From assembly GCA_963713865.1 (NCBI GenBank), contig OY970208.1, forward strand, positions 1,024,001 through 1,088,000: a stretch of 64,000 nucleotides of DNA, read 5' to 3'. The notes under the pieces are model-generated. The model searched no databases. It saw only the letters and a list, made by a program, of their open reading frames with translations, and was not told where the DNA came from. Shown piece after piece: positions 12,770 through 48,121 of this stretch. The stretch comes from an uncultured candidate division Zixibacteria bacterium. Lineage in GTDB: Bacteria > Zixibacteria > MSB-5A5 > RBG-16-43-9. Each line of letters begins with the position of its first letter. Within the stretch, counting starts at the first letter, position 1. The translations under genes and the position numbers were made by a program.

Positions 12770-13600
12770 ATGAACCTAAAAAGAATCGGGATTTACCTGT
12801 TTTTCGGTTTAGTTGGTTTCTTTAGTTTTTCTATGGTTCGAGCGGATACAACGACAATTTTTATTAGCGATGCCATAGATTATCAAGGGCACATTCAAAC
12901 TCAGATCCCGGTCTATATCGACAATATAGATCAACATATCGAAGGTTTCCAGTTAGGGTTTACTATAATCCCTAACGACCGGGTTTATTTCACCACCGAT
13001 CACTTTGAAGTTCACTTTGATACCGTCTGTTGTGATACGATCACACCTTGTCCTCAACTCTGTGTAGATACTAATATCGCTCGCGTTGTGAAGATAGATA
13101 GAACTGGTTCTTTGACAAGTAATTTTCCTTGGTTTTCCGCTAGCGGAGAGGCTGGAGATACCACCAGTGATTATTGTATAAATTTAAGTGTTGTAGGAGT
13201 GGCTCCATCAACTCAGCCGATCGGTCCGGGTTTCGGAATTCTGTTTAAAATATACTTAGATGTTCTCTGTCTTTCAGATACCTTACTACCGGATACGCTG
13301 GTTTATATAAATGTATATGGAACTCTTGCTCAGGATGATACCCTGATCAAGGAAAAAAGGTTTTTACAGGGAAGGTATATAATATTAGCGGTTAAATATG
13401 GTGATGCGAATGGAGATAATAAGGTCTCAGTTGCGGATGTGGTTTATTTGATAAACTATCTTTTCAAAGGAGGTTCTCCACCTAATCCACTGATTAAGGG
13501 AGATGCGAATGGCGATGGAAAAGTTAGTACAGCAGATGTAGTTTACCTGATTAATTATCTTTTTAAAGGAGGTCAACCTCCCCATTGTCAGGAAGGATGA
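12770..13600 (+). CDS. Secreted cohesin-like + C-terminal dockerin protein (adaptor-like)
   Basis: Signal peptide; IPVYIDN..IEGFQLGF..PIGPGFGILFKI cohesin-like fold; two [23 protein letters not shown] repeats. Confidence 0.8.
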   Translation: MNLKRIGIYLFFGLVGFFSFSMVRADTTTIFISDAIDYQGHIQTQIPVYIDNIDQHIEGFQLGFTIIPNDRVYFTTDHFEVHFDTVCCDTITPCPQLCVDTNIARVVKIDRTGSLTSNFPWFSASGEAGDTTSDYCINLSVVGVAPSTQPIGPGFGILFKIYLDVLCLSDTLLPDTLVYINVYGTLAQDDTLIKEKRFLQGRYIILAVKYGDANGDNKVSVADVVYLINYLFKGGSPPNPLIKGDANGDGKVSTADVVYLINYLFKGGQPPHCQEG

Positions 13601-13930
13601 AAGCTTTGGGAGAACAGGCATTTCCTACGGATCCGTTCCTAGGACCTGCCTGTTCCCTGCTCTATCAGAGAGCAAAGCCTGGCGTAGCCACAAGAATGTC
13701 TGACTTATCGGTTTTAGTGAGCATTATGAACGAAGAGGGTAAAACTGTAAACTTTTTTCTGAAAGGAGGTGAGGAAAAGAAGGGGTAAAAACCAACCACG
13801 ATTAACACCCTTAACCACTTTCGAAGGAGGTGAGTGTCTTAAGAGGTAACTAAGCTTTGACCTTTGAAAGAGAGGGGGAAGTATCAAAGATTTTTGAGAT
13901 AAGTTAACATTTATTTAGAGGAGCAAGAAA

Positions 13931-16231
13931 ATGAGAAAGAATTTATTATTAATTGTTTTGGCATTCTCTCTGGTGTTATTCTTCTCCAATTTAGGAGTTG
14001 CCCAAAACAACACACTCACTCTTCAACCAGTAACTCTTAATATTCATCCCTGCATTGGTGGAGGAACGGTAGAAGTTGACATAATGATCGCGACTTTTGA
14101 TCCCCAAATTGTGGCGGTTCAGGTTCCCCTGTTCGTGGGCGGGACTTCTGTTCCGGTGTTGAATACTATTCTGACTGGCCAATCCACAAGTCCGACTCCT
14201 CCAGGTCCTCCAGCATTCTTTGCGCCCAGCTTGTGTTACACTTTCACCACAAGGGTCGTGAATGAATTAATGGCTGGGGGGAATCCACTGTTGTTTGCGG
14301 CAGTCGATTTCGGCAATGGTATTGCGATCCCAGATACTGGACTCTATTGCCAGATGTTCTACGATGTATCTGGTCCGGGAACTATAACTTTTGATACCGG
14401 GTACTTCAATCCTGCTGGTTCATTGGGCATGAACGACCCCAGTGGTCCTCGTACTAACGTTGTCTGGGGTGGAGGCGCTGGCTGGGATCCAGTCCTTAAG
14501 GTATATTCCTTTGACGTGGTCCGGACTACTGAACAAGCACCAGTGGTTAATTGCCATGGTCCCTATGAGTTCTTCGTGAAGGACATTGTACCGATCAGCA
14601 TCACTGCTACTGATGGTGGCGGAACCCCAATGGCAGGAATCTTCCTGAAAGACCCGCTTCCCTGCGGAACTGGTTCTTTCTCCGGAACAATCGGCAACTG
14701 GACCTACAACTGGAACACCGATGGCTGTGATGAGGGTGAATTTGACTTAGAATTTGGTGTGTATGACGGCTGCGATACTGTCTATTGCACTGCCCATGTG
14801 AAGCTGATTGCTACTGTAGGGTTCATCTGGATCGGCAACACCTTAACAGATATCAATGGCGGTCCAGTAGATCCCTGCGACATCGTTAAGGTACCGGTTT
14901 GGTTGAAGGCTAACACCTCCTTTGGTGCCTTTAACCTCTACATTGAATTTGACCCGACTCTGCTTTATTTCCGGGGCATCGAGAAAGGTCCTGGCTTACC
15001 AGATGGATGGGAGTATTTCACCTACAGACAGCTTCCTTGCCCGATGTGCGGCTGCTGCAAATACAAACTGCAGATCCTTGGTTTGTATGACCTAAAGGAC
15101 AAGCACCAGGGTGTGCCGATTCCAATCGGCAACGACGTTGTGATCGCCTATATGACGTTCCAGGTGGCTTGTGATGAGAATATCAGAGGGTATGATCTGA
15201 ACATCTGCTTCGAATTTGACGACGGAATCTGCACAGAGAACACCTTCTCTGATGTTAGCGGTAATATGCTGTATGTCAGCGACAATCCAGAGTTCTTCAA
15301 CTATGATGACTGCGATACCGAGTTCGATGGAGTCAACGTCGTGATGAACAAGATGCATTTTAACCTGTACGCACCTCCTGGAACCCTGAATCCTGATGGC
15401 CGTGCATGCGGTGGAGTATTGGTGAGAACCACAGGCGAGAAGGTAAGAGGTGATATCAACCTCAACCTGATAGCTTATGACCCAGCCGACGTGATTCTGT
15501 TCTCCAGCTACTTCATCTATGGCGAGAAGGTGTTTATCATCGATCAACCGATTCAGATTGCCAATACTGATATTAACGCTGACGGATTCCCACTCTCCTT
15601 GTCAGACTTCATTATGATGATAAGGATTGTGCTGGGCGATGCTACCAAAATACCGAAGCCGACTCCAGGGTCTGACTTAGCCACCATCTATATGATTGGT
15701 GACAAAGTCTCCACCAATGCTACTCTGGGTGCAGCTCTGTTGACCTTCAAGGGTGAGGGCAAAGTTAGCTCTAACTTGACGTTCGAGCAGGGTGTAGTAG
15801 ATGGTAACATGAGAGTTCTGGTTTATATGAACTCCGGCGCTGGCGTAACGGGTGAACTGCTCACCGTTTCCGGAGCAACATTGCAGAAGGTTGAGGCAGT
15901 TGACAACTTTGGCAGACCGGTGAAAACCACTTTGGTCAACAAGGTTATCCCGACTGCTTTCGCGCTGTATCCCAACTATCCCAACCCATTCAACCCGACT
16001 ACCAACATCAGCTTTGCTCTGCCCGTAGACTCCAAGGTTTCCTTGAAGCTCTACAACGTGGCTGGACAGCTGGTCCGGACCCTGGTCAACGAGACCATGC
16101 CGGCTGGTAATCATACGGTTACCTGGGACGGGAGCAACTCCAATGGTGAGAAAGTTGCTTCTGGTATCTACTTCTACAAACTGAATGCTGGTGACTTCAG
16201 CAAGACCATGAAAATGGTTATGACGAAGTAA
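13931..16231 (+). CDS. Secreted cohesin-Ig-cohesin-dockerin-like protein with FlgD-Ig/T9SS-type C-terminal domain
   Basis: VKVPVWL..FGAFNLYIEFDP (cohesin); GDINLN..DINADG (dockerin-like); NYPNPFNPTTNISF..SGIYFYKL..KMVMTK. Confidence 0.8.
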   Translation: MRKNLLLIVLAFSLVLFFSNLGVAQNNTLTLQPVTLNIHPCIGGGTVEVDIMIATFDPQIVAVQVPLFVGGTSVPVLNTILTGQSTSPTPPGPPAFFAPSLCYTFTTRVVNELMAGGNPLLFAAVDFGNGIAIPDTGLYCQMFYDVSGPGTITFDTGYFNPAGSLGMNDPSGPRTNVVWGGGAGWDPVLKVYSFDVVRTTEQAPVVNCHGPYEFFVKDIVPISITATDGGGTPMAGIFLKDPLPCGTGSFSGTIGNWTYNWNTDGCDEGEFDLEFGVYDGCDTVYCTAHVKLIATVGFIWIGNTLTDINGGPVDPCDIVKVPVWLKANTSFGAFNLYIEFDPTLLYFRGIEKGPGLPDGWEYFTYRQLPCPMCGCCKYKLQILGLYDLKDKHQGVPIPIGNDVVIAYMTFQVACDENIRGYDLNICFEFDDGICTENTFSDVSGNMLYVSDNPEFFNYDDCDTEFDGVNVVMNKMHFNLYAPPGTLNPDGRACGGVLVRTTGEKVRGDINLNLIAYDPADVILFSSYFIYGEKVFIIDQPIQIANTDINADGFPLSLSDFIMMIRIVLGDATKIPKPTPGSDLATIYMIGDKVSTNATLGAALLTFKGEGKVSSNLTFEQGVVDGNMRVLVYMNSGAGVTGELLTVSGATLQKVEAVDNFGRPVKTTLVNKVIPTAFALYPNYPNPFNPTTNISFALPVDSKVSLKLYNVAGQLVRTLVNETMPAGNHTVTWDGSNSNGEKVASGIYFYKLNAGDFSKTMKMVMTK

Positions 16232-16248
16232 TCTTCATTCCGTTATTA

Positions 16249-16279
16249 CCGAAGGAGGGGAAAGTCTCCCCTCCTTCGG
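16249..16279 (+). terminator. Strong 3' stem-loop without U-tract
   Basis: CCGAAGGAGGGG / CCCCTCCTTCGG perfect 12-bp stem right after the 13931 gene. Confidence 0.55.
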
Positions 16280-16440
16280 GCTAAAAATGAAAGGAAAAAG
16301 AGATAAGATAGAATTTTTAAGAGATTTTAATTTTCTTCTCCTCTGGGTGAGGACCTTGTAGTTAGCTGGCTGAAGAGCGGTTGTTGACTTGACGATAGTA
16401 AGAGTAGTAAGTTTAAACAAAAAGTTTTCGAGGTAGAAGA

Positions 16441-18603
16441 ATGATGAGAAACAAACTCTTTTCCTTTTTTTTTGTTTTTATAGCTGCATTTTTTTCCTCA
16501 AGTCTTTCTTTTGCTCAAATCCCTGATACAGTTGGGGTAGTCGATACCTTAAGAGTCGGAAAGGTAACAGCTTATCCTGGCTCAAAAGTTTGTGTGCCGG
16601 TTTATGCTTTTAATGATGAAGACTTAGGAGCGATTACTGTGCCTCTTAGGTTTTCCAGCTCAGATGTTTTTTGCGATTCGGTTTCCTTTGTGGGGGCAAG
16701 GATTTCCGGTGATCCATTAAAAGGGGGGGAAATAGATACTTTGAATAGAACTATCAAGATTTACGACATATCTACCACTCAGATAAATTCCGGAAGTGGG
16801 TTGATAGCAAATATGTGGTTTAAAATAAAGGATGACGCTCTTCCACAAACCGTGGAAATAGATACTTTTTCAACGACTGAGCCTCCTCTTTCATTAGCTT
16901 TTGTCTATACCTGGGCAGAGGAGATGATCCCTGCATTCGTAAAAGGGGGGATCACTATAAAAGAGAAAAATCTGCCCCCTCAGATACAGCCGATTGGAAC
17001 CCAGTATGTAACTGAGGGGGATACTTTATTAATAAAAATATCTGCAAACGATCCAGAAGGGGATTCAGTAAAGTTCAGTTTGCTAAATGGTCCCGAGGGT
17101 GCTTCCTTTACAAATTCAAGTAATAGCAAGGCTACTTTCCTCTGGGTTCCTCCTTATACTGGACCCTGGTCTTCAGTGAATACCCCTTTCAAGGTTACCT
17201 TTGTAGCTTTAGATGGAAATAGCACTTCAAAAGAAAATGTGGAGATTAACGTTATAGATAAAAACCTTGGAGCAAAAGGTTATGTCATGGAAATCGGGTC
17301 AGATTCAGGTTTCTTCTCTGATCTTGTTACTATTCCTATTAAACTTACCAACCTTGATTCAATTGCATCTATTAACTTATTACTTAATTTTGATCCAAGT
17401 GCACTTTCATTATTGAATGTAAGCAAGGCAAATACAAGGACTTATAATTGGGAATATTTTCAATATAATCAGCCTGCATCCGGTGATATTAGGATCTCAG
17501 GACTTGCTGACATCCCATTATTACCACTTAATCCTCCCTTACCTCCCGGAGAGGGAGTAATAGCTAATTTGAATTTCCAGATCATACTTGATACTAGTCC
17601 ACTGAGTTTATCTACATCCATAAGATTTAAATTCTTAGACTCAACTGATAATACTTTGAATGGTGCTCTGGGGCAGAACTTTATATCGCAGAAAAAAATC
17701 ACTTACCAGGATGGATTTATCTATATAGAGAAATTAGATGTTCTATTAGGAGATATAAATCTCAACAGTATACCATATGAGATTGGAGATGCAACCCTTT
17801 TTAGCAACTATTTAACTAATCCAGTAAAGTATGTTTTCAATGAGCAACAAGAGCGCAATTCCGATGTGAATGAGGATGGCATTTGTTGTTCCCTGGCTGA
17901 TTTTATCTATTTACTTAGTAAAATATTAGAAGGCCCCGTTTTAGAAAAATTATTACCACGGACTGACATAAATCAGGTTAAATTAAAGAAGAGTTCTTCA
18001 AATCTTGATTTGTTTGTTGATTCAGATATCCCTATAGGTGGAGCTTTCCTGGTGATTAAACATCCGGGGATAACTTTTGGAACTCCGATATTATCCTCAG
18101 AAACAAAAGGAATGATTTCTATGATGAGAGATTATCCTGTAGAGTTAAGGCTCCTTATCTATAGCTCCAGAGCTGGATATATAGAACCAGGACAAAAGAA
18201 ATTAATCTCTATCCCTATTATAGATGGAGAAGGGGATATAGAATTATCCAAAGCTTCATTCTCGGATAACTTAGGGAATTTGATCAATGCAGGTATTTTA
18301 TTACAATATAATGAATTAGTTCCAGAAAAATTTACATTGTTTCAGAACTACCCCAACCCATTTAATCCAGAAACTAATATCTCCTTTACCTTACCTGAAG
18401 AGAGAGAAGTAATATTGAAAATATACAACCTCAGGGGACAATTAATTAAAGTGCTTGTTAACCAGAAATTAAGCCCGGGCTACCACACTTTTACCTGGGA
18501 TGGAAAGAATGAATCCGGAGAGGATGTTTCAAGTGGAATCTATTTCAATAGATTAATTGCAGGAGATTACTCTAAAACCATGAAAATGATAAAGGTTAAA
18601 TGA
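16441..18603 (+). CDS. Secreted cohesin-Ig-cohesin-dockerin-like protein with C-terminal sorting domain
   Basis: DTLRVG..VPVYAFNDE; NLPPQI Ig repeat; IPIKLTN..FDPSAL; GDINLN..DVNEDG; NYPNPFNP CTD. Confidence 0.8.
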   Translation: MMRNKLFSFFFVFIAAFFSSSLSFAQIPDTVGVVDTLRVGKVTAYPGSKVCVPVYAFNDEDLGAITVPLRFSSSDVFCDSVSFVGARISGDPLKGGEIDTLNRTIKIYDISTTQINSGSGLIANMWFKIKDDALPQTVEIDTFSTTEPPLSLAFVYTWAEEMIPAFVKGGITIKEKNLPPQIQPIGTQYVTEGDTLLIKISANDPEGDSVKFSLLNGPEGASFTNSSNSKATFLWVPPYTGPWSSVNTPFKVTFVALDGNSTSKENVEINVIDKNLGAKGYVMEIGSDSGFFSDLVTIPIKLTNLDSIASINLLLNFDPSALSLLNVSKANTRTYNWEYFQYNQPASGDIRISGLADIPLLPLNPPLPPGEGVIANLNFQIILDTSPLSLSTSIRFKFLDSTDNTLNGALGQNFISQKKITYQDGFIYIEKLDVLLGDINLNSIPYEIGDATLFSNYLTNPVKYVFNEQQERNSDVNEDGICCSLADFIYLLSKILEGPVLEKLLPRTDINQVKLKKSSSNLDLFVDSDIPIGGAFLVIKHPGITFGTPILSSETKGMISMMRDYPVELRLLIYSSRAGYIEPGQKKLISIPIIDGEGDIELSKASFSDNLGNLINAGILLQYNELVPEKFTLFQNYPNPFNPETNISFTLPEEREVILKIYNLRGQLIKVLVNQKLSPGYHTFTWDGKNESGEDVSSGIYFNRLIAGDYSKTMKMIKVK

Positions 18604-18719
18604 TTTCCACTTATTGAGTAATATGATTCAAAGAACTAACTTAGAATGATATAATATATCAGAATAGAAGATCATAGAGAAGATTAAAAGATAGAAAAAA
18701 TTATGAAAAGGAATTTAAG

Positions 18720-20972
18720 ATGAGAGGAAAAGCCTTTTTTCAAAAGAAACAAATGTGGGGAATAATTTGTTTGGTAGTCTTATCAGTTATACTTTTCGTT
18801 CCGAAAAGCTGGTCTCAAACTATTCCTCGACCGCAAGACACTTTAAGAGTTATAGATGCCTCTGGTATACCTGGAGATACAGCGGTTTGGGTATCAATCT
18901 ATTTAAGAAACAGTATATCCGTTTCAATTTTTACTTTACAATTGGTTTTTGATGAGAATTTGATTGAGCCCAAGGAAATTGTAGTTGGTACTGATACTAT
19001 GATAAATGCAGTAGCTACTGCAAGAGATACTTTTTTTGAAGACCATCCATCAGATCAGTGGAAAACTTTTGCAGGATCAAGAATCGATGATTCTACCATT
19101 ATCTTTATGGCTGCCAGTCTTGATTCTATGATGTATAGAGATACCATAGCATCTGGAACTGGACTAATACTGCGTATCCAGTTTATGGTGAGCTCAAGTA
19201 TTACCAAAGACACTACCACATCGATAAGATTTTTAGATGACACCTTAGGTAGCTATAACCTCATAGTACATGCAACACGAAGTTCAATAGATCAATATAA
19301 ACTTTCTCAAACCTCTGGTACTTTTACCATAACTACTGGAGGAACACCTGGAAATCATTCACCTGTTTTTGGTACACTGGCAAGCCAGTTTGAAGTAACA
19401 GAGGGACAGACCTTAGCTTTTACGGTAAGTGCCAGTGATGAGGATGGAGATACGGTTACCCTATCTGCGGATGCTCTACCACCTAATGCTACCTTTCCCA
19501 CGGTTAAAGGAGTCAGTGCCGTTTCTCAAACCTTCAGTTTTTCCCCTGATTTCACTCAGGGACCGGATACTATCAGCATAACTTTTAGAGCAAGAGATGA
19601 ACATGGCGCCAGTACTTTAAAGACAGTAACAATTATAATAAATGCTGTCCCTCAGGATCTATTGATAGTCACTAAAGATCGCGGTGGCGTTCCGGGAAGC
19701 ACTGGTAAGCTTGTACCTTTGATTCTAACTAACCTTCAGGATGTCTATGGAATTCAATTTACCCTTCACTTTGATTCAACCGCATTAGAGGTTGATTCAT
19801 TTGTCCCAACGGAAAGAATAAATGGATTTAACATAAAATCTAACTTAGGAGATAGCTCCAATCAAGTAACAGTTCTTGTTTTAAACTTGAATAATCAAGT
19901 TATACCCCCTGGCTCAGATACCATTTTATATTTTGCTTTATCAGTCGATTCTTTAGCGAATCCTGGGGTGAGACCTTTGGCCCTAACTAAAGCTCGGGAA
20001 GCTATAGGTATTACTACCCCGTCAAAAGAGTTGGAAGTTGTGAATGGATTTTTTACTGTGGATAAATTCGGGGATGTTAATTTGGATACTTTAGTTGATA
20101 TTGGGGATGTGGTTTATTTGATAGCTTATATATTAGAAGATGTAACGATTAATCCACGTCAGGCAGAGGCAGCCGACATAAACCGGGATGGGATTGTAAA
20201 TGTTGGTGATTTAGTAGGGGTGATCAATACTATTTTGGGTCGACCCATCAATGCTCCGATACCTCCTTTCCGTGAGCCTTTAGCTTACCTCCACTTAGAA
20301 TATGACTCTTTGCAAGCGGGTAGCGAAGGGAAGATAGATTTGTGGGCGGATTTGAAGACCTCGGTAGCAGGGGTTCAATTAAAAATAAAGTATGACCCAG
20401 AACAGATGACTTTCTCTGCTCCGAAATTAACTTCCAGATCAAATAGTTTTGATACACTTTTTTACAAAGATGACGGAAAGGGAAATCTGACTGTTGTATT
20501 CTTTAGGTTTGGCAAAGCCCCCATTGCCCCCGGAGAAGGTAGTATTCTTTCTCTGCCAGTGGTTGCCAGCTCAAATTTTGACAAGGGGAAAATGCAATTA
20601 TACTTAAAAGAAGCAATCTTAGCTGACCCAGAGGCAGTGGTTATACCGGTGGATAAAGGTGAAGTGATACTGCCTAAATCATTCAGCTTGAGCCAGAACT
20701 ATCCCAACCCGTTCAACCCAAATACGACTATAAGATTTGAGATAGGTGTAGGTGGAGGAAATCAAGCAGCGGTGAATACAACCTTAAAGGTCTATAATAT
20801 CTTAGGTCAAGTAGTAAAAACTTTAGTGAATGAGCCTAAATTGCCTGGGATTTATTATCAGACCTGGGATGGTAAGAATGAGCAAGGGGAAAAGGTTTCC
20901 TCAGGTCTTTATTTTTACCAGTTGAGAGCAGGAAATTACAACGAAACGAAAAAAATGGTTTTATTGAAATAA
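18720..20972 (+). CDS. Secreted three-cohesin + Ig + internal dockerin protein with C-terminal sorting domain
   Basis: Three cohesin-like units, GDVNLD..DINRDG dockerin, NYPNPFNP CTD. Confidence 0.8.
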   Translation: MRGKAFFQKKQMWGIICLVVLSVILFVPKSWSQTIPRPQDTLRVIDASGIPGDTAVWVSIYLRNSISVSIFTLQLVFDENLIEPKEIVVGTDTMINAVATARDTFFEDHPSDQWKTFAGSRIDDSTIIFMAASLDSMMYRDTIASGTGLILRIQFMVSSSITKDTTTSIRFLDDTLGSYNLIVHATRSSIDQYKLSQTSGTFTITTGGTPGNHSPVFGTLASQFEVTEGQTLAFTVSASDEDGDTVTLSADALPPNATFPTVKGVSAVSQTFSFSPDFTQGPDTISITFRARDEHGASTLKTVTIIINAVPQDLLIVTKDRGGVPGSTGKLVPLILTNLQDVYGIQFTLHFDSTALEVDSFVPTERINGFNIKSNLGDSSNQVTVLVLNLNNQVIPPGSDTILYFALSVDSLANPGVRPLALTKAREAIGITTPSKELEVVNGFFTVDKFGDVNLDTLVDIGDVVYLIAYILEDVTINPRQAEAADINRDGIVNVGDLVGVINTILGRPINAPIPPFREPLAYLHLEYDSLQAGSEGKIDLWADLKTSVAGVQLKIKYDPEQMTFSAPKLTSRSNSFDTLFYKDDGKGNLTVVFFRFGKAPIAPGEGSILSLPVVASSNFDKGKMQLYLKEAILADPEAVVIPVDKGEVILPKSFSLSQNYPNPFNPNTTIRFEIGVGGGNQAAVNTTLKVYNILGQVVKTLVNEPKLPGIYYQTWDGKNEQGEKVSSGLYFYQLRAGNYNETKKMVLLK

Positions 20973-21006
20973 AGTTACTTAAAACAAACTAAAAAAGGTT
21001 AGCTAT

Positions 21007-27390: not shown

Positions 27391-27412
27391 AAAGATGGAG
27401 GTTAGTGAATTG

Positions 27413-29642: not shown

Positions 29643-29676
29643 AGTTACTTAAAACAAACTAAAAAAGGTTAGCCAT

Positions 29677-32600
29677 ATGAAAAGATTTTTTAGAAGTTTC
29701 CCGCTTGGTCTTTTTCTTATTCTCATTTTTTATCTTCCAGCCCGGGCCCAGAATAATGCTCCGGTATTGGATTCTATAGGACCCCAGAGCGTAGATGAAG
29801 GACAGGTATTAACCTTCCAGATTCACGCTACGGATGCAGATGGAGATAGTATAGTTCTAAATGCTACTAACATACCCGCCAATGTAACCTTTACCGATTC
29901 AGGAAATGGAGCGGGATCGTTCACTTTCAGCCCGGATTATACCCAGGCGAACATATATAATGTAACCTTTATAGTTACAGATACATCAGGCTCAGCAGAC
30001 AGCGAGGTAGTAGCGATAACGGTAAATAATGTAAATGATGCGCCGGTATTAGACTCGATAGGAGCAAAGAGTGTGAATGAGGGACAGGTATTGAGCTTCA
30101 GGGTACATTCCACAGATATCAATGGGGACAGTCTGATTTTGAGTGCGTTGAGCGTTCCCACCAATGCAGTCTTCACAGACAGCGGAAATGGAGCGGCTTC
30201 ATTTACTTTCAGTCCGGATTATACCCAGGCAAACATATATAATGTAACCTTTATTTCTACAGATACAGCAGGCTCAGCAGATAGCGAGGTAGTGGCGATA
30301 ACGGTGAATAATGTGAATAATGCCCCGGTTTTAGACTCGATAGGAGCAAAGAGTGTGAATGAGGGACAGGTATTGAGCTTCAGGGTACATTCCACAGATA
30401 TAAACGGAGACAGTCTGATTTTGAGTGCCTTGAACACACCGACCAATGGAGTCTTCACAGACAGCGGCAATGGAGCAGGCTCATTTACCTTCAGTCCGGA
30501 TTATACCCAGGCGAACATATATAATGTAACCTTTATTTCTACAGATACAGTAGGGGCTGCAGATAGTGAAGTAGTCCAAATTACGGTGGTGAGCGCAGGA
30601 AACCGAACACCGGTATTGGATTCTATAGGTTCAAGGAGTGTAAACGAGGGAGCTAATTTAACCTTCCGGGTACATTCTACAGATGCAGATGGAGACAGTA
30701 TAATTTTAAGTGCAACGAGTATACCTACCAATGCAACTTTTACTGATTCAGGTAATGGAGCGGGTTCGTTTACCTTTAATCCGAATTATACCCAAGCAGG
30801 AACTCATAATATCACTTTCAAAGCCACAGATCTATCTTCAGCGGTTGACAGCGAGGTAGTGGCGATAACGGTGAACAATGTGAATAATGCCCCGGGATTA
30901 GACTCAATCGGCTCAAAGAGTGTGAATGAGGGACAAGTATTGACATTTAGAGTTCACGCTACAGATATCAATGGAGACAGTTTAGTTTTGAGTGCTTTAA
31001 GCGTTCCCACCAATGCAATCTTCACGGACAGCGGAAATGGAGCAGGCTCATTTACTTTCAGCCCGGATTATACCCAGGCGAACATCTATAATGTAACCTT
31101 TATCGCTACAGATACATCAGGCTCAGCGGATAGCGAGGTAGTGGCGATAACGGTGAATAATGTAAATAATGCCCCGGTATTAGACTCAATCGGCTCAAAG
31201 AGTGTGAATGAGGGACAGGTATTGAGCTTCAGGGTACATTCCACAGATATCAATGGGGACAGTCTGATTTTGAGTGCGTTGAGCGTTCCCACCAATGCAG
31301 TCTTCACAGACAGCGGAAATGGAGCGGCTTCATTTACTTTCAGTCCGGATTATATCCAGGCGAACATATATAATGTAACCTTTATCGCTACAGATACATC
31401 AGGCTCAGCAGACAGTGAGGTAGTGGCGATAACGGTAAATAATGTAAATGATGCGCCGGTCTTAGACTCGATAGGACCGCAATTGGTTACTGAGGGTCAA
31501 GTATTAACCTTGAGAGTACATGCCGCAGACATAAATGGTGACAGGTTGATTTTGAGTGCTTTTAATGTTCCCACCAATGCCAGTTTTATAGATAGCACTA
31601 ATGGTTTAGGTTCATTTACCTTCAGTCCGGATTATACCCAGGCGGGTATATATAACGTAACCTTCGTAAGTACAGATACAGCAGGAGCGGCAGATAGTGA
31701 AGTGGTAGCGATAACAGTATTGAGCGCAGGGAATCAGACGCCTGTATTAGACCCGATTGGATCAAGGAATGTGAATGAGGCTTCAAATTTAACCTTTAGA
31801 GTTCATGCTACAGATGCAGATGGTGATGCTATTACATTGACCGCTACTAATCTTCCAGCTAACTCCTCTTTTGCCGATTCAGGTAATGGAGCGGGTTCGT
31901 TTACCTTTAATCCGAATTATACCCAAGCAGGAACTCATAATATCACCTTCAAAGCCACAGATCCATCTCTGGCGGTTGACAGCGAGGTAGTAGCAATTAC
32001 GGTGTACAATGTAAACAATCCGCCGGTCTTAGACCCCATAGGACCGAGGAGTGTGAATGAGGGGCAGGTATTAGCATTTAGAGTTCATGGAACAGATATA
32101 AATGGCGATAGATTGATTTTGAGTGCCTTGAACGTTCCCACCAATGCGACTTTCACTGACAGTGGTAATGGTTCAGGTGCATTTAGCTTCAGCCCGAATT
32201 ATACTCAGTCAGGAGTTTATAATGTGACCTTTGTAGCCACAGATACAGTGGGATCTGCGGATAGTGAGGCGGTGGTAATAACAGTGAACAATGTAAATCA
32301 GGCACCGATTTTAACCTATATTGGTCCGCGGAGTGTGATGGAAGATGATACATTGCTATTCAGGGTAAGTGCCACTGATCCAGATGGAACTTTTCCGACT
32401 CTAAGTACCGTGAATAGACCTGCGAATTCCAGCTTTGTGGATTCTGCAAACGGAGCTGGCTCATTCAGATTCACACCTGATACCACTCAATACGGGATAT
32501 ATTTTGTCACCTTCATATCCAGCGATGGGTCTTTAGCCGATAGTGAAATCGTTCAAATAACAGTAACTGAACAAGGAAATCAACCTCCAGTCATAGATTC

Positions 32601-35124
32601 AATTGGACCAAGATCAGTCAGGGAGGGGGATTCTCTGAACATTACAGTCAGAGCTACTGACCCAGAGGGTAGTATTCCAGTTTTAGGTGCAAGCAATACC
32701 CCATTTAATTCTATTTTCAAAGATAATCATAATGGCACCGGTCTCTTCATTTTTAAACCGAGCTATTATCAAGCTGGAGTGGACACAGTCACCTTTATTG
32801 CTACAGACACCGGTCATGTTTCTGATTTTGAGAATGTGGTTATAACTATAATAGATGTAAATCGACCTCCCACGATTGATTCTATACTTCCACAAAATGT
32901 AGCAGTTGGAGATACCCTGAGGATCAGAGTAGTGGGTAGAGATTCTTCGGATTGGAATGGGGGACGTTTATATATGACTGCAACGAATCTTCCTTTGAAT
33001 TCGACGTTTCAAGACAGCGGAAGTGGTATTGGCAAATTCAGGTTTATACCTAACAGCAGTCAGGTGGGTATTGATACTGTAACCTTTATGTGCACAGATG
33101 CTGAAATTCCAGCAATGACCGGAGTAAGAAATGTTACCATTACCGTAACCTCAGGTCCTAATAAACCTCCGGTCTTAAATCCAATTGGCTGGAAGATAGT
33201 AAATGAAGCTGAAACTCTGACCTTTAATGTCTCAGCTTCTGACCCGGATGGATCAATTCCAATTTTATATACCAACACTCTACCCAGAAATGCAGTTTTT
33301 GTAGATAGCGGGAATGGAAGAGGAACATTTACGTTTATGCCAGACTATGCTCAGCAGGGATTAAAGCAGGTAACCTTCTATGCTAGCGATGGTAGTTTAA
33401 TTGATTATGAAAATGTGCTGATTCAGGTTATAGATGCAGGTAACCAGAGACCGATTTTGCAGGCGATACCTCCGGACAGCGTTATGGAAGGAGATACCCT
33501 GCTAATAACTGTTCATGCGGATGATCCAGACAGCACTATACCAGCTTTATCTACTGGGGCATTACCCCTTAACGCTTATTTTACAGATCATCTAGATGGA
33601 AATGGAGTCTTTTGGTTTGCTCCTGTTTATGTGCAGTTTGGAGAGGATACCATAAAGTTCATAACTTCGGATGGCTTATTAGCTGATACTGAAACGGTTT
33701 TGATAACAGTGCTTGATGCTGGAAATCAGACTCCAGTTCTTTCTATACCCTACGATTCAACAACTGTAAATGAGAATGCCACTTTAAGCTTTACAGTTAC
33801 AGGGGTCGACCCGGATAGCGATAAGGTCATACCTGTACCTTACCTCAGGGCAACTAATTTACCGACTAATGCCACTTTTGATACTACTACATCTGGTAAA
33901 GTCAGAAGGGGAACATTCAGTTTCTCACCTGATTATTTCCAGGCAGGTAATTATACGGTATATTTCCGGGTGTTAGATTCTGAGGATACGCTGATGACCT
34001 CAGTTGACAGTATAAAGATAACGGTCATAAACGTTAATCGGAAACCTCATTTCACTCAATGCATATCTTCAGTAAATGTTAACGAGGGGAATACTTTGGT
34101 TATAAATGTCAAAGCAACGGATAATGATGGGCCAATCCCGAGATTAGATGTAAAACCAAAACCTTATTTAACCCATTTAGATTTTGTGGATAGCCTGAAC
34201 GGCACAGGAACACTTACCTTTACTCCGTATTATAACCAGGGGAATCAGAATCCAACAGTCTATTCGGATACTTTCATAGCAATAGACTCAGAATATCCAT
34301 CTGATACCGGTTACTGTTTGCCGCCAGCTACATTAATCTTGGTTTTTAATGTGCCCATGCCGCCGGTCATATCACCTATAAACGATACAAGTATAGTTGA
34401 AGGAGATACTTTAAGGATTGTCGTGCGTTTTTCTGATCCGGATAGTATACCTCCTGCTTTAGCGATAGTTAATCGACCAGCCAATTCTACTTTTACCTCT
34501 ATTAGTTACTATGGATGGTTCACCTTTACTCCTTCTTATGTCCAGTCAGGAGTTTATAATGTTAGCTTTATAGCTACGGATAATACCGCGTTAGCAGATA
34601 CTGAGCAGGTTCAGATCACTGTAATTGAGGCTGGTAACCAAAGGCCAATCCTGACTCATATTCCAGATACAATTGCAGTGGTTAGTGGTTCACAAAAGAG
34701 GGATACGCTAAACTTGCGTGTCAGTGCAACAGACCCGGATGGGACTATTCCTCATTTATATGCTAAGAATTTGCCTATAAATGCTACATTTATCGATAGC
34801 CTAAATGGAAGAGGGAGATTTACTTTTGCTCCAGATTCTGTTCAGGCTGATTCTATTTATGACGTAACCTTCATAGCTTCTGATGATACCTTGTCTGATA
34901 GTCTGACAGTCTCAATAACTGTAGTGTCCTATGTGCGAGGTGATGCAAATGGAAATGGGCAATGTAGTTTAGCAGATATAGTTTATTTAATTAACTACTT
35001 GTTTAAAGGTGGTCCAGCACCAAACCCCAGACAGGCTGGAGATGCTAATAGAGATAAAAAGGTTACTGTAGCTGATTGTGTCTATCTTATCAATTATCTT
35101 TTTAAAGGAGGCCCTCCTCCGTAA
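29677..35124 (+). CDS. Secreted protein with 18 tandem cadherin/Ig-like repeats and a C-terminal dockerin (paralogue of 21007)
   Basis: Near-identical signal peptide to 21007; counted 18 repeats; terminal dockerin [20 protein letters not shown]. Confidence 0.88.
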
Positions 35125-35739
35125 GCCCTTGTTTTAAAAAAGGTTTCTCTGAAGTTCAATATAGGAAACAGATATACATATAATCTATTGTCCAAAGGAT
35201 ATAAGGTTATTTACTCCCAGGTTTAGGGAATTTTTAACCCCTTTTATAATACAGTTACCTTAATCTTAATAATTACAGGGGATAAGGATAACCCTTAAGC
35301 CTTATCTTATTATCCAGGTTAAACTTTTAAGAAAATTTGTCGATTAGAATATTAATTAAAAATTGATAAAAAGAATAAAAAAAAGACTTGACAAATTGAG
35401 TAAAAAAGTTTAATTATAAAGTGGTAAGTCTTGGGTGTTAGTCAGGTTGGATTTTAAGATCAAAGAGTTAAGCCGTAGAAGTTTTTCTCCAAAGAACTTC
35501 TCAATAGATATTTTAACTTTTTCCTAACTTAAAAGACCAAAGAGCCAATTTAATTGTTTGCAGGAGGAAAGGGAGTGAGGGAAAAGTTAGGCAGGTTTTT
35601 TTATTAAAGCAGGAGGAGGAAATCCAAGCAGAAGTTTTAAAGATAATACTTTTCATTAATAAAGGAGGTGGTGTTAAGGTTTAATAATTATTTATCTAAA
35701 AATAGGAAGTAGTTTTAGTAACCAAGAAAGGAGCAAAAG

Positions 35740-38700
35740 ATGGCGAAAAGAGTTTTAGTCTTAGCCTTAAGTTTATTGCTGATAGCAAGCTTAAGTGCTT
35801 TTGGGGCGAAGAAGCCGGTGGAGAAGAAAGTGCTCCCGAGCATGGAGAAAATGAAGCCCGTAGATGAGAGTATAATCTACCCGTATCGTACTACGACCAC
35901 TTTAGAACCCAAGTTCTTCTTCCCGATGACAGATGACACCGTAGGCTGGACTTATTATGACTACCAGGAAAACAGTTCCGCACACCGCCGGATAGCCTAT
36001 GATTATCTGGGGAATCTGCATTTCGACTGGATGAATATGGTGGGTCCGGATTTGAGCGAGAACCGCTATATCGATTATAATGCTCGTTACTCAGATGGAA
36101 GCTGGCTAAATCCTGGCGCGGGTATGCATGTTACTAAACCCACAGGCAGAGGCGGGTATTGTGGTTTAGATATACTGCCGAATTCGAGGGAGGTATTAGC
36201 TTTCCACGATGTTGGCGGCGGGTACTATTCCTGTCTTGCCATAGAGAAGACCACTCCTGGATTAGGGCAGTTCAACATATTCGATGTTAGAGACGGAGTC
36301 CAAGGCAGTGTAGCTGACGACCATAGTACCTGGCCTATGATTGGCACTTCCAAAGCAGGGCATAGTGGCACCACTTATATTCATATAACTAATTTTGCTC
36401 AGAATGATTATGCTGGTTACCAGCGCTGTTATGAGAAAGCACCGGATTCTCTGATATGTCAATCACCGGGATGGACTGATACCATAAGGGTTAAGGCTGG
36501 TTATCTGCTGGAAGCTAACAGCAAAAACAAACAACCCTATATGTTTAACGGCACTCAAAATGGCAATGATGGCAAGATCACTTATATTGCAGCGCCGGTA
36601 GTTACTTCTCCTACTGGATCAGGACACGTGGCTATAATCTGGTATGATCAGACAGCTTCTGTCTTTTATCAGGGAGAGATGTATTATATAGAGTCCACCA
36701 CTGACGGGGATGACTGGATGGCCGGGAACAACCTAACACCCATAAAGATAACCAATTGGGGCGCCAATAACTGGAAAGATTACGATTTCTATTACACTGA
36801 GATAGCTGCAGTGTACGACTATAATAATGTGCTCCATGTATTCTTTACTGCCTCTGCTACTGGAAACGAAGGAGAAGATCTAAGTTTATTCCACTGGAGT
36901 ACAGCTACTGGTGATACCCTTCACAAAGTGGCTTCTCGGTATGTAGCCGCAAATTGCGGTGCTTGGGATTACGGTATTGCCAAGCCGACCGCGGGTGTAG
37001 AATATCAGGTGGGAAATGCGGCTTACAATTATCTCTATGTGGTTTACGCCGGGTACAAGGATGACGACGTATCTTTAGCTGGTTATGCCAATGCGGATAT
37101 ATATAAGAAAGTATCTGCCACTGGCGGCCGGAACTGGGGACCTGAGGTGAACCTGACCAATACCAATACAGATGGCTGTGACAACGGGGACTGCGAAAGT
37201 GAAGCTTGGCCTACAGTAGCCGAGAGGGTGGGAGACTATATGTATGTCAGCTATCTTTATGATTTAGATGCCTCTGGTGCTATCACCCCTGAAGGTGGAT
37301 ATACCCTCGATCCGTTTCGCTACCTGAAGGATCCACGCGAGTTAGTTCCAGCAGTTGCCGGTAAGGACTTTACCCCAAGTATGATGATTAGTCCGGTCAG
37401 ATGGGCTAAAAACGGAGCAAGCAAAGCTGATGCTTTTACCTTTGCGAATACTGGTACAGCGACTTTGTATGTGAAGATCAGTACACCTCCCTATGTAACT
37501 GCAGTTCCGGCTCAATTCAGTATCCTACAGCTTTCGGCACCGGTGAATGTTAACCTGACCTTCAGCGGAGCCGGGAAACAAGATACCTTCTTAGTAGGCC
37601 AGATAATGATTGAGTCAAACAATGGCTTATTAGGTGGTGGAGAGACCTATGTAGATACTGAGTATGCGAAGTTCCACTTTGTGGTAACTGACACCTTCTA
37701 CTATCCTGAATATGACACAGCAAATTTACATGTTAGAGCGGTCGTTTCCAACGTAGGGAACATAGGACACCAGGAAGATGACGATCTGACCGGCAACGGG
37801 ATGAACTATAATGGATATAATTATCTATTTGAGTTTACTCCGGTTTTTGTTACTGATGATATCGGTGGAGAGGGTCCTGTGGGCTTTACCTGGTTACATG
37901 ATCACCATGACTTTTTACCCGAAGCTCACGTGAAGTCGCAGACTTATAACTATCTATTGAGCACATCATCGTCCGTAAAGGTCAAAGTAATATACGATAA
38001 GTTTAGCCTTGTTTTTCCAGGACGTCTTACTTCTCATGGCGACTTCCACTCATGGTGGAGCTACTGGACTAAGTATTCTCAGGTCATGGTCTTCGACTCC
38101 CCTCCGGTTATTCTGGTATACAACTGGTGGTACTGGAATCCGCCTCCGATATGGTGGGATGATCTTACCGGATCTACAAATCCGCAAGGAGGTTATTTTG
38201 GCATAGCGGCTGACTGGGATATCCAAGCTAAACATGGCTCAGATAACTGGGGTGGTTATGATGAGGATTTGAATCTAATCTGGCAGCAGGGAGACAGTGC
38301 TGAGTTCCTGAACTACTATGGTGCCTTCCAATTCTTAGATGCGGAAGTAACGCAAGGTGGCTCTACCATCTACCACGGCACCGCACCGTTGAGCGCTTAC
38401 GTTTTGAACAACGCTAAACAGCTCTATCCTTATAGCGGGTATAATGATGATTCCCTGTATAAGTTTATGTCAACAACTGGCTTTTCAGTTGAGCAGGAAG
38501 ATTCTATGCAGGATAATAATATGCTGATGTCAATGGCTCAGGTAACTGCTCCTGATCCCACCACTGTAATTGAGCTGAAATATTTATTACTGGTAACTGA
38601 TAAGGGTTTAGATAGTTTGAAAGCCAACGCGGCTAAGTTATCTGAGATAATTGCACAGTGTACTTCTTTATCTGGAGATGCCAATGGTGATGGAAAGATT

Positions 38701-38883
38701 TCGGTTTCGGATGTGGTATATCTTATAAATTATCTATTCAAAGGTGGTCCGCTACCGGTTAATCCAAGTGATGCCAATGGCGATGGAAAGATTTCGGTTT
38801 CGGATGTGGTTTACCTGATTAATTACCTGTTTAAGGGCGGTCCTCCTCCTGTAACTGGTCCTATACCAATTTGGTGTGAGTGA
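35740..38883 (+). CDS. Large secreted protein (beta-propeller/BNR-like N-terminal half, unknown function) with C-terminal dockerin
   Basis: Signal peptide; STTDGDDW and SATGGRNW Asp-box-like motifs; two [24 protein letters not shown] repeats. Confidence 0.75.
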   Translation: MAKRVLVLALSLLLIASLSAFGAKKPVEKKVLPSMEKMKPVDESIIYPYRTTTTLEPKFFFPMTDDTVGWTYYDYQENSSAHRRIAYDYLGNLHFDWMNMVGPDLSENRYIDYNARYSDGSWLNPGAGMHVTKPTGRGGYCGLDILPNSREVLAFHDVGGGYYSCLAIEKTTPGLGQFNIFDVRDGVQGSVADDHSTWPMIGTSKAGHSGTTYIHITNFAQNDYAGYQRCYEKAPDSLICQSPGWTDTIRVKAGYLLEANSKNKQPYMFNGTQNGNDGKITYIAAPVVTSPTGSGHVAIIWYDQTASVFYQGEMYYIESTTDGDDWMAGNNLTPIKITNWGANNWKDYDFYYTEIAAVYDYNNVLHVFFTASATGNEGEDLSLFHWSTATGDTLHKVASRYVAANCGAWDYGIAKPTAGVEYQVGNAAYNYLYVVYAGYKDDDVSLAGYANADIYKKVSATGGRNWGPEVNLTNTNTDGCDNGDCESEAWPTVAERVGDYMYVSYLYDLDASGAITPEGGYTLDPFRYLKDPRELVPAVAGKDFTPSMMISPVRWAKNGASKADAFTFANTGTATLYVKISTPPYVTAVPAQFSILQLSAPVNVNLTFSGAGKQDTFLVGQIMIESNNGLLGGGETYVDTEYAKFHFVVTDTFYYPEYDTANLHVRAVVSNVGNIGHQEDDDLTGNGMNYNGYNYLFEFTPVFVTDDIGGEGPVGFTWLHDHHDFLPEAHVKSQTYNYLLSTSSSVKVKVIYDKFSLVFPGRLTSHGDFHSWWSYWTKYSQVMVFDSPPVILVYNWWYWNPPPIWWDDLTGSTNPQGGYFGIAADWDIQAKHGSDNWGGYDEDLNLIWQQGDSAEFLNYYGAFQFLDAEVTQGGSTIYHGTAPLSAYVLNNAKQLYPYSGYNDDSLYKFMSTTGFSVEQEDSMQDNNMLMSMAQVTAPDPTTVIELKYLLLVTDKGLDSLKANAAKLSEIIAQCTSLSGDANGDGKISVSDVVYLINYLFKGGPLPVNPSDANGDGKISVSDVVYLINYLFKGGPPPVTGPIPIWCE

Positions 38884-38916
38884 GCTTTCCTTCAAGGCAG
38901 GTTAGAGATTTAAAGT

Positions 38917-38956
38917 TTATGGGATTCCGTTCCAAAACGGAGTCCCATAACTTTTT
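38917..38956 (+). terminator. Rho-independent terminator
   Basis: TTATGGGATTCCGTT / AACGGAGTCCCATAA stem followed by CTTTTT. Confidence 0.65.
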
Positions 38957-39119
38957 AAAAGAGGGGTTAAACTTTAAAGAAGATGCGTTTCTTTGATGGT
39001 AACATCTAAGTTAGCTCTTCTCATAAGATTATTCCCTTGCTTGTTTTTATTAAGGTTCTAATTTATGGTAATAATAGTCAAACTTTTTCGTATTTTATTA
39101 TAGCTATACGTTAGGTATA

Positions 39120-39282
39120 ACAACGTTCCTTGAAATGTGGTTAGTTATAGATTTGTTTGGAGGGAGAACCCATTCTATTCTGTGTAGCGTTAAAGGTGCT
39201 AACTGGGTTAGTATTCTCTCAGCGTTAAATATGGTTTATCTAATCAACTATTTATTCAGAGGTTGACTTTCACCAGGTTGTG
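39120..39282 (+). pseudogene. Decayed dockerin remnant
   Basis: Intergenic frame reads [28 protein letters not shown], matching [27 protein letters not shown]. Confidence 0.6.
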
Positions 39283-39511
39283 AAAAAATAAAAAAATCTT
39301 AATTTTTTTGTTGACAAATTATCTGGCTTTGATTATATACTTAAAAAGTGAGTATAATTAAGTAGAAACATCTTTAATATTTTAACGTTAAGGAGGTGGT
39401 TTGGCATATACTATAGCTAAAGCCGATAAAAGCTCTACGGCTCGTAGAGAGGTGGAAAGAAGGAATGAAGAAAACAAAAACTATAACAATTATTAGGAGA
39501 GGGGTGAAAAA

Positions 39512-40357
39512 ATGAAAAGAAACTTAACCTTAGTATTTTTATTATCTCTATTTTGTTTGACAAGCTTTAATTTGGCCTTAGCTCAGGACTCTGGAATAAG
39601 GGATACCTGTTATGTTGATCGAATAACGAAAGTGCGTCCGGATACTCAAGTGATTATGAATATTTATATTGTTAACGATGAGGCCTTAGGTGCATTTACT
39701 ATTCCCCTGAGATTTCCGGATTCTATTTCAACTTTAGATATTACCTGCGATTCTATTAGCTTTGTGGGCACCAGATCTGAATCAGCCGCATATAAAAGCG
39801 ATGCAACCTCCATAAATAATGCTAAAAACAGACTGGTGGCATTAGCGATTTGGATTACGGAACTTGGCATAGGAAATGTAGCAAGTGGCCCTGTGGCTAA
39901 GATATACTTTACAACCGGTTCTTCGTGGGATTCAACCAGTTATGTTCCAGTAGATACTGTTATATGGCCTCCTATATCAGAGTTAGAATTTGTACCTTCA
40001 GCAACTGGCATAGGATTTATGCCAGTCTTCTTGAAAGGTGCTTTAGAGGTAAGAGAGGTTAATACTCCATCAATACCTACGGTTTTCAGCCTTTCTCAGA
40101 ACTATCCTAATCCTTTTAACCCCAAGACACTGATAAGGTTTACCCTTCCAAAGGATTCCTGGGTTAATATAGAGGTGTATAACATCTTAGGGCAGAGGGT
40201 AAAAACTCTGGTGAATGAGAAACTTACTGCTGGAGTAAAAGAAGTGGAATGGGATAGTAAAGGTGATAATGGACTTGAGGTTGCCAGTGGGATCTATTTT
40301 TATAGAATTAAAGCAGATGATTTTTCAGACATAAAGAAAATGGTTATGCTGAAATAG
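39512..40357 (+). CDS. Secreted single-cohesin protein with C-terminal sorting domain (anchoring-scaffoldin-like)
   Basis: QDSGIRDTC..IYIVNDEALGAFTIPL..CDSISFVG; NYPNPFNP..KKMVMLK. Confidence 0.8.
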   Translation: MKRNLTLVFLLSLFCLTSFNLALAQDSGIRDTCYVDRITKVRPDTQVIMNIYIVNDEALGAFTIPLRFPDSISTLDITCDSISFVGTRSESAAYKSDATSINNAKNRLVALAIWITELGIGNVASGPVAKIYFTTGSSWDSTSYVPVDTVIWPPISELEFVPSATGIGFMPVFLKGALEVREVNTPSIPTVFSLSQNYPNPFNPKTLIRFTLPKDSWVNIEVYNILGQRVKTLVNEKLTAGVKEVEWDSKGDNGLEVASGIYFYRIKADDFSDIKKMVMLK

Positions 40358-46147: not shown

Positions 46148-46162
46148 GAAAGGAGTGGTTCC

Positions 46163-47017: not shown

Positions 47018-47043
47018 AAAGAAAAAGATAGATAATTAAATTT

Positions 47044-48092: not shown

Positions 48093-48121
48093 TTATCCTC
48101 CTAATAGTTGCGATTTATAAC

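Follow-up and report, generated by a model that had tools for sequence, protein, structure and literature searches.

Cohesin-dockerin assemblies are the textbook machines of Gram-positive cellulose degraders. What would such parts be doing in a two-membrane bacterium, in a row of genes without recognisable glycoside hydrolases? The question is raised by a stretch of 64,000 nucleotides (the window in what follows) from an uncultured bacterium of the candidate division Zixibacteria (GenBank assembly GCA_963713865.1, contig OY970208.1, positions 1,024,001 to 1,088,000). In it, ten consecutive genes of the plus strand, from 12770 to 40357, encode proteins that each begin with a basic and then hydrophobic, signal-like N-terminus, as read from the translations. 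The initial annotation described this row as a cellulosome-like cluster of secreted proteins, six of them ending in a T9SS-type (type IX secretion system) C-terminal domain (CTD) and carrying one to three cohesin-like modules, and four ending in a dockerin. All ten genes are found at the starts that it gave, one of them read as two open reading frames (ORFs). Its folds and the absence of glycoside hydrolases from the cargo stand, and T9SS genes are present in the genome; the idea of an enzyme-free system does not. The cluster is the main scaffoldin locus of a genome-wide system whose enzymes are encoded elsewhere, and we consider it probable that this is a cohesin-dockerin system for surface display on a diderm cell, with a cargo made up mostly of proteases and binding proteins. 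Proteins are named below by the first position of their ORF.

Are the modules really cohesins? Pfam was used with cut-offs of 24.1 bits for Cohesin, 22.9 for Dockerin_1 and 27 each for FlgD_ig and Por_Secre_tail. Among the cluster proteins, Cohesin (PF00963) passes in 16441 (44.3 bits), 18720 (51.5 bits), 25768 (41.9 bits) and 27849 (43.3 bits) only, the last being the second of two ORFs of one split gene; 13931 stays under the cut-off with 20.8 bits, and 12770 and 39512 give no Pfam Cohesin match. With a hidden Markov model (HMM) of the cohesins of the window itself, iterated over the genome, the count in the cluster comes to 13 modules, 12 on CTD proteins and one on 12770 (6.6e-30 for 13931, 4.8e-25 for 39512 and 2.7e-9 for 12770). 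The weak cohesins of 13931 and 39512 were recovered by such profile comparison, and the claim of one to three cohesins on each of the six CTD proteins is borne out. Residues 134-766 of 13931 align with the 18720 family at a probability of 99.85% (hhalign). Residues 147-265 of 12770 align at 92% with the part of that family which holds the second cohesin and the dockerin, and judged by its sequence 12770 is best described as a cohesin-dockerin adaptor. Over the genome the cohesins fall into at least four classes. The profile of class 1, to which 39512 belongs, matches the first cohesin of 18720 at a probability of 96.4% in profile-profile comparison, and gives 0 matches to solved cohesins among PDB sequences.

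The fold was examined on an AlphaFold2 model of 18720 (alignment of 25 orthologues; mean predicted local distance difference test score, pLDDT, 82.4), which was compared with 48,161 solved chains by VIA-align. Ranks 1 to 20 are all cohesins, with Z from 12.6 to 19.4. Residues 311-450 match the cohesin 6kgc_A (Z 19.4, root-mean-square deviation 1.5, 135 residues aligned) and residues 37-206 match the cohesin 5nrk_A (Z 17.7, deviation 1.8, 140 aligned). Residues 448-510 match the dockerin 2ccl_B (Z 12.5, deviation 1.1 over 62 residues), residues 211-310 a SraP-like immunoglobulin-like (Ig) domain (Z 11.2), and residues 649-750 the CTD of PorU, 6za2_B (Z 10.9). Thus the nine-stranded jelly-roll of cohesins is predicted in the first two modules of 18720, the protein that was modelled. 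The initial annotation had staked its case on cohesin folds, and in the modules tested they are found, together with the folds of a dockerin and a T9SS CTD. Foldseek was also tried on whole multi-domain models and returned generic multi-Ig, integrin and sialidase rows only (TM 0.1-0.3); the usable domain matches came from VIA-align. The modules are also strongly non-random in their distribution. By our HMM 13 of the 28 cohesin modules of the genome lie within the 27.6-kb cluster, about 1% of the 2.72-Mb contig, which is far beyond chance.

The dockerins come in two classes. Dockerin type I (PF00404) scores 28.6-48 bits in six cluster proteins, and an alignment of every copy shows the two D/N-rich loops. 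The C-terminal dockerins of 12770 (48 bits), 21007 (42.5 bits), 29677 and 35740 lie between 38.7 and 48 bits, and none of these four proteins has a CTD, as had been claimed. They belong to class A, of which there are about 60 near-identical copies genome-wide with a shared motif (28 protein letters, not shown) present twice; the class A motif as read off the alignment (11 protein letters, not shown) is internally duplicated and near-invariant. The initial annotation went further and proposed a strict rule of either a dockerin or a CTD, which does not hold: four of the six CTD scaffoldins (13931, 16441, 18720 and 27849) contain an internal, divergent dockerin, and the two are not mutually exclusive within one protein. 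These internal class B dockerins clearly differ from the class A copies in the alignment. Those of 18720 (37.2 bits) and 27849 (28.6 bits) pass the Pfam cut-off, that of 13931 is known by alignment, and that of 16441 is weak (E 0.0024 with our own HMM). In the internal dockerin of 18720 the Ca loop has four residues (D448, G451, N454 and D456) that do not vary among 25 orthologues of 33-88% identity. Apart from this, 54 of the 58 C-terminal dockerins bear a cysteine among their last 12 residues, which in many cases closes the chain after GGPxP, and 39 of the 58 have one in the second Ca loop (NCD); the two stalk proteins have no terminal cysteine. A disulfide between the second Ca loop and the C-terminus was considered and is not claimed, for the counts are not clean (37 with both cysteines, 17 with the C-terminal one only, 2 with the loop one only and 2 with neither).

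By what machinery would the scaffoldins be anchored? FlgD_ig (PF13860) scores 35.4-48.8 bits in all six CTD proteins (13931, 16441, 18720, 25768, 27849 and 39512), with the highest value in 13931. Por_Secre_tail (PF18962) scores 26.5-34.9 bits and passes its cut-off in five of them; 13931 reaches 34.9 bits and 18720, with 26.5, is just under. For 39512 the two CTD models give 33.5 and 35.7 bits. With the PorU match of 18720, these scores agree with the C-terminal beta-sandwich of ~80 residues that marks a type A CTD. Homologues of SprA (573.5 bits, or 711.5 with neighbouring pieces, at a cut-off of 200) and of PorU (584.1 bits at a cut-off of 420) are present in the genome. The case of PorV is less clear: the best score of its model is 85.7 bits under a cut-off of 250, and four partial matches lie in a PorV-like frame directly downstream of PorU. 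It may be that the genome has a reduced or divergent type IX system outside Bacteroidota.

What would the scaffoldins display? To this end, the 5,696 ORFs of at least 60 residues in the single 2.72-Mb contig containing the window were surveyed. Dockerins are found in 65 of them, CTDs in 45 and cohesins in 21, the cohesin modules numbering 28, and six-frame scans with Pfam give 66 dockerin and 17 cohesin matches. A C-terminal dockerin only is found in 49 ORFs and a terminal CTD only in 33; a cohesin stands together with a CTD in nine, with a C-terminal dockerin in six, and with an internal dockerin and a CTD in two. Eleven of the 21 cohesin ORFs have a CTD and seven have a dockerin but no CTD, and of the three exceptions two are fragments left by split genes. 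The dockerin ORFs were then screened for other Pfam domains, at E<=0.01 for the 7 of the cluster and at E<=1e-6 for the 58 outside. Among the latter are 14 peptidases (six Peptidase_S8, two each of Peptidase_C25, Peptidase_M1 and Peptidase_M14, one Peptidase_C1 and one Peptidase_M64) and one Amidase_3. Ten are SBBP propellers, one of them also with FG-GAP, three have FG-GAP only, four are beta-helices and one is Kelch; three carry other domains and 22 no second domain. None of the 65 has a glycoside hydrolase family, and no scaffoldin has a family of carbohydrate-binding modules (CBMs), by Pfam. Hence the cargo is free of recognised glycoside hydrolases as claimed, and the marks of a cellulosome, dockerin-bearing glycoside hydrolases and a CBM-bearing scaffoldin, are not found. 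The phrase "no recognisable catalytic subunits" is right for the cluster and wrong for the genome. The 38 CTD ORFs outside the cluster include seven peptidases (M4, three S8, M28, M6-like and C25), a 5'-nucleotidase, a multihaem cytochrome and, by Pfam, no glycoside hydrolase. The cytochrome (genome positions 1995440-1998091, 883 residues) is MtrC/MtrF-like with Cytochrome_C554 and C7 matches, and with its T9SS CTD it may be a surface-anchored electron conduit.

These counts bear on the version of the initial annotation, a purely structural or adhesive coat in which the scaffoldins would display only fibres and adhesins, such as Ig stalks and propellers, with no enzymatic purpose. It agrees with the cluster itself, where no catalytic Pfam domain is found. 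The stalks 21007 (Big_9 298 bits) and 29677 have exactly the 15 and 18 repeats that had been counted (own HMM); their repeats begin directly after the signal peptide and there is no head domain. The dockerins on ten SBBP, four FG-GAP, four beta-helix proteins and one Kelch protein also suit a coat. However, the 14 peptidases and the amidase bear the same near-identical class A dockerin as the stalks, and we therefore think such a coat improbable.

Is the arrangement particular to this genome? About 40 orthologues of 18720 share its Pfam architecture, and 35740 has 31 homologues; the named homologues of both are from candidate division Zixibacteria, with one partial protein 95% identical. The order of a 13931-like, a 16441-like and an 18720-like gene followed by an Ig stalk is kept in a genome of the same genus (G050, contig 34) and in one of the same order (G062, contig 21). 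When 151 genomes of the phylum were sampled, 147 gave a cohesin match, which passed the cut-off in 140; dockerins are found in 40 of 41 sampled genomes, with 1 to 75 matches each (62 in the present genome). A locus search with the 18720 family reaches further, and most of its 77 loci match only residues ~650-750, i.e., the CTD motif. This search thus shows the spread of the CTD over the phyla of the Fibrobacteres-Chlorobi-Bacteroidetes (FCB) group, in many of which the NYPNPFNP-type CTD is found, and not that of the scaffoldin. Five longer matches from other phyla were scanned. One, from a Bacteroidetes metagenome-assembled genome, has a clear dockerin (Dockerin_1 48.7 bits) with SBBP and a CTD, and another, from an Ignavibacteria metagenome-assembled genome, has a sub-threshold Cohesin match (20.4 bits) and a CTD. 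The openly licensed literature in PMC and bioRxiv, with subscription journals and supplements outside the scope, holds no paper on Zixibacteria with dockerins or with type IX secretion, and that openly licensed literature holds nothing relevant on dockerins in Latescibacteria.

Do the two partners pair with each other at all? The folds may be the same without mutual pairing, the dockerins being Ca2+-stabilised tails or binders of other ligands and the cohesin-like modules generic beta-sandwich spacers of T9SS proteins. The excess of 65 dockerin ORFs over 28 cohesin modules could be taken in this sense, and so could the six proteins that hold a cohesin and a class A dockerin together; a survey of 2009 by Peer and colleagues is said to have found non-cellulosomal cohesins and dockerins of unknown partner to be widespread. 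Such a view fits poorly with the near confinement of cohesins to proteins that have an anchor (CTD) or a dockerin of their own, with the conserved gene order that puts a scaffoldin beside a dockerin cargo at a spacing of 34 bases, and with the co-occurrence of the two families across the phylum. It seems to us unlikely. One pair was submitted to complex prediction, namely the second cohesin of 18720 (309-450) with the dockerin of 35740 (968-1040) and two Ca; this single pair, run by itself, scored 0.12 against a mark of 0.32, which speaks neither for binding nor against it, and the class 2 cohesin may be the wrong partner.

The protein 35740 needs a separate word. The initial annotation called it propeller-like, and its AlphaFold2 model (pLDDT 74.9) indeed shows a 7-bladed beta-propeller at residues ~60-536. 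The best VIA-align matches are tied: CylK (Z 26.3), the PLL4 lectin (25.9) and the glycoside hydrolase BACINT_00347 (25.9), with Photorhabdus lectins and GH145-type hydrolases (among them 5mum, 25.9) at ~25-26, a polysaccharide lyase of family PL42 (7esk, 23.1) and the PL25 ulvan lyase (5uam, 21.4). With lectins and GH145, PL42 and PL25 enzymes about equally similar (Z 21-26), the modelled fold does not tell the function, and a catalytic role may be considered. Sequence searches with Pfam, PDB profiles and a protein atlas (best score 0.87, its own dockerin cluster) gave nothing beyond the dockerin. Improbable, too, is a true polysaccharide-degrading, cellulosome-like complex with carbohydrate-active enzymes too divergent to be recognised: it could draw on the resemblance of the propeller to 5mum, 7esk and 5uam, on the 22 dockerin ORFs with no second domain, on BACON_2 in one dockerin ORF and Ig_Rha78A_N in another, and on the GH18 and GH57 enzymes reported for a Cloacimonadota system in the part of PMC8542988 drawn on here, but Pfam assigns no glycoside hydrolase family to any of the 65 dockerin ORFs and no CBM to a scaffoldin, the propeller is equally like lectins and CylK, and the GH35-like gene that adjoins the cluster has neither signal peptide nor dockerin.

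How might a surface-display system with such a cargo work? The six type A T9SS-CTD proteins would be exported by Sec, pass a SprA-type translocon and be fixed to the outer surface by the PorU sortase. Their 12 cohesins, and a thirteenth contributed by the adaptor 12770, would be docking sites, with 28 such sites genome-wide, and about 58 secreted proteins with a terminal class A dockerin would plug into them, presumably with Ca2+. The cluster itself would provide as cargo the two Ig stalks, the propeller protein and the cohesin-dockerin adaptor, while mainly peptidases, beta-propellers and beta-helices would come from elsewhere in the genome. The class B dockerins of four scaffoldins would probably link the scaffoldins together into a two-tier network as in complex cellulosomes, and the class A proteins would dock on some of the scaffoldin cohesin classes. 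Six proteins join a cohesin, mostly of class 1, to a class A dockerin, and we infer from this a hint that class 1 is not the class A receptor. The likely role would be to catch particulate protein and degrade it by proteolysis, and also to adhere, in a cell that ferments peptides.

Some points weigh against this surface-display scenario. The type IX system may be incomplete or divergent: besides the PorV score under its cut-off, GldL and GldM gave no match with TIGR03513, TIGR03517 and PF12081 in this genome, which is 94% complete, the two TIGRFAM models being silent in control genomes too. Of the 44 terminal-CTD proteins, 33 have no cohesin, and seven of the 38 CTD ORFs scanned outside the cluster are peptidases attached directly, so that cohesin display is not needed for surface proteolysis. 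The class 1 cohesins, 39512 among them, are missed by Pfam, and it is the profile-profile match to 18720 by which they are assigned as putative cohesins. The 22 of 58 dockerin ORFs in which Pfam sees nothing but the dockerin may conceal unrecognised enzymes, some perhaps carbohydrate-active. What is more, the dockerin cargo has no CTD, and no canonical Gsp type II system by which it might pass the outer membrane was seen in the genome; of the two secretins, one lies in a PilMNOPQ cluster and the other in an MshE-like/T2SSF cluster. With a signal peptide on the cargo, no CTD and no canonical type II system seen, a piggy-back route is conceivable, in which the cargo would dock to scaffoldins in the periplasm and ride with them through the large SprA translocon. 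This route is part of a bolder version of the reading, a two-tier, T9SS-anchored "peptidosome" throughout the phylum Zixibacteria, with a class B lattice and class A dockerins loading proteases, propellers and Ig fibres onto it. We give that version little credence as a whole.

The features of the locus are collected in Table 1. The initial annotation did not include the internal dockerins, the adaptor 12770, a tandem duplication and a split gene. The duplication covers 16465-25560 and 25787-35124, two copies, 82-85% identical in nucleotides, of a three-gene unit, in which a scaffoldin with two cohesins and one with three are followed by an Ig stalk. The 25768 gene is 82% identical to 16465-17685, and the 29677 gene is 85% identical to the first copy over 3152 bases. 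The gene that had been placed at 27413 has the CTD and cohesin architecture described for it; as one ORF it is not found in the present sequence. By BLASTP its two ORFs cover residues 12-160 and 169-750 of 18720. An extra A at 27858 (AAA instead of AA) is absent from the contigs of all four public runs compared, from three studies, and with one base fewer the two frames join into one gene. The break at 27858 is either an assembly indel or a strain-specific lesion. Two other genes are found in two frames: PorU (genome positions 1611886-1614561 and 1614533-1615126), and a GH35/GH42-like beta-galactosidase at 40649-42821 (overlapping ORFs 40649-41494 and 41439-42821), perhaps by another indel. 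Several such breaks in one genome suggest assembly indels.

Table 1. Coordinates and domain composition of the cluster and of the two window edges (positions in the window; residues in amino acids)
Position	Strand	Feature
12770..13600	+	Putative adaptor: signal peptide, divergent cohesin-like module ~96-193, C-terminal class A dockerin 210-264
13931..16231	+	Scaffoldin B: cohesin, Ig, cohesin 302-448, internal class B-like dockerin ~505-575, cohesin3-like module, CTD
16441..18603	+	Scaffoldin C: class 1 cohesin 35-159, Ig 182-269 (Big_9), class 4 cohesin 281-415, weak internal dockerin 436-498, further module, CTD
18720..20972	+	Scaffoldin D: cohesin 37-206, Ig 211-310, cohesin 311-450, class B dockerin 448-510, third cohesin 522-656, CTD 649-750
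21007..25560	+	Ig-stalk cargo: signal peptide, 15 tandem ~94-residue Big_9/cadherin-like repeats, class A dockerin
25768..27390	+	Scaffoldin F, paralogue of 16441: class 1 cohesin, Ig, class 4 cohesin, CTD; no dockerin
27395..29642	+	Scaffoldin G/H, paralogue of 18720, with CTD; one gene read as two ORFs (27395-27877, 27849-29642)
29677..35124	+	Ig-stalk cargo, paralogue of 21007: 18 tandem repeats, class A dockerin
35740..38883	+	Propeller cargo: 7-bladed beta-propeller ~60-536, beta-sandwich domains, class A dockerin 979-1030
39512..40357	+	Minimal anchor K: class 1 cohesin 31-184, CTD
2..3256	-	N-terminal 1085 residues of a 1857-residue beta-helix/CarboxypepD_reg protein; its class A dockerin lies just beyond the window (Pfam)
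62922..63999	+	Further scaffoldin leaving the window: 214-residue class 1 cohesin ORF overlapping the start of a 1202-residue ORF (own HMM)

The 1202-residue ORF at the window end has two cohesins and a CTD (Cohesin 82.2 bits). It belongs to a second scaffoldin group at genome positions 1086922-1100491, which comprises the 214-residue cohesin ORF, this protein and a 272-residue cohesin-CTD protein and continues with a dockerin-bearing M1 peptidase and SBBP proteins. Counted together with upstream genes, 14 of the 65 dockerin ORFs fall within genome positions 1,002,000-1,100,500. Between the cluster and the second group lies an IS110-family transposase (58050-58976; DEDD_Tnp_IS110, Transposase_20). 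Beside the cluster, 43010-57644 encodes two HtrA-type proteases, an M29 peptidase, a 2-oxoacid:ferredoxin oxidoreductase, a prolyl oligopeptidase and an OPT peptide transporter, and these peptide-use genes fit a peptide-based way of life. Within the cluster the GC content is 0.49 at 14001-16000, inside 13931, and 0.46 at 36001-38000, inside 35740, with about 0.38-0.40 around.

How does the system compare with those already known? Clostridial and ruminococcal cellulosomes, e.g., the CipA/OlpB/SdbA cluster of C. thermocellum, share with it the cohesin fold (Z up to 19.4 to CaCohA2 and 15.9 to 1ohz_A), a dockerin (Z 12.5 to 2ccl_B) of two duplicated segments, clustered scaffoldin genes, dockerins of more than one type, adaptors, and a genome in which dockerin proteins are scattered by the dozen. 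They differ in that here the cell is diderm, a T9SS CTD takes the place of SLH modules or sortase as anchor, no scaffoldin has a CBM, no dockerin protein has a glycoside hydrolase, and the cargo would be peptidases, propellers and Ig stalks. In Porphyromonas gingivalis the gingipains are attached to the surface by T9SS, and the enzymes carry the CTD themselves. The type A CTD, the PorU sortase, the SprA translocon and C25 peptidases, here including a CTD-bearing one, are common to both, whereas a second, indirect layer of cohesins and dockerins would be particular to the present system, in which GldL and GldM are undetected.

The nearest likeness is a 2021 in silico prediction for the Cloacimonadota 'Ca. 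Stygibacter', where the part of that report drawn on here describes a CTD scaffoldin that combines tandem cohesins with CBMs, and enzymes of the GH18, GH57, S8 and C25 families that bear dockerins (PMC8542988). The initial annotation knew of no characterisation of such an assembly; this holds for experiments, and less so for prediction in view of that scaffoldin. Both organisms are diderms of the FCB group with a T9SS-CTD scaffoldin and dockerin-bearing S8 and C25 peptidases, and both cases are purely in silico. There, as far as that part of the report goes, a single scaffoldin of 3,755 residues has tandem cohesins and CBM2/CBM3, and GH18 and GH57 enzymes have dockerins (PMC8542988); here, in another phylum, about eleven smaller scaffoldins with one to three cohesins of at least four classes have internal dockerins, and no CBM or glycoside hydrolase is found. 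The amylosome of Ruminococcus bromii is also a cohesin-dockerin system for a purpose other than cellulose, but in a Gram-positive organism, with GH13 amylase cargo and with binding demonstrated by experiment, as the part of PMC4611034 used here describes it. Thus a CTD-anchored, peptidase-bearing cohesin assembly was known before from the Cloacimonadota prediction, and what is new is one that would be phylum-wide, protease-loaded and T9SS-anchored, with two tiers of dockerins.

There is a further question, what this means for the bacteria themselves. Cohesin and dockerin parts appear here to be joined to the type IX anchor of a diderm cell, with proteases and not cellulases as their load, and the trait is almost universal in an uncultured phylum that is common in sediments. 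If the cohesins and dockerins do bind each other, this would raise the question of how a cargo without CTD passes the outer membrane. It would also provide a second natural way of displaying enzymes on the surface of Gram-negative cells, useful for engineering, and would explain how these bacteria feed on particulate protein.

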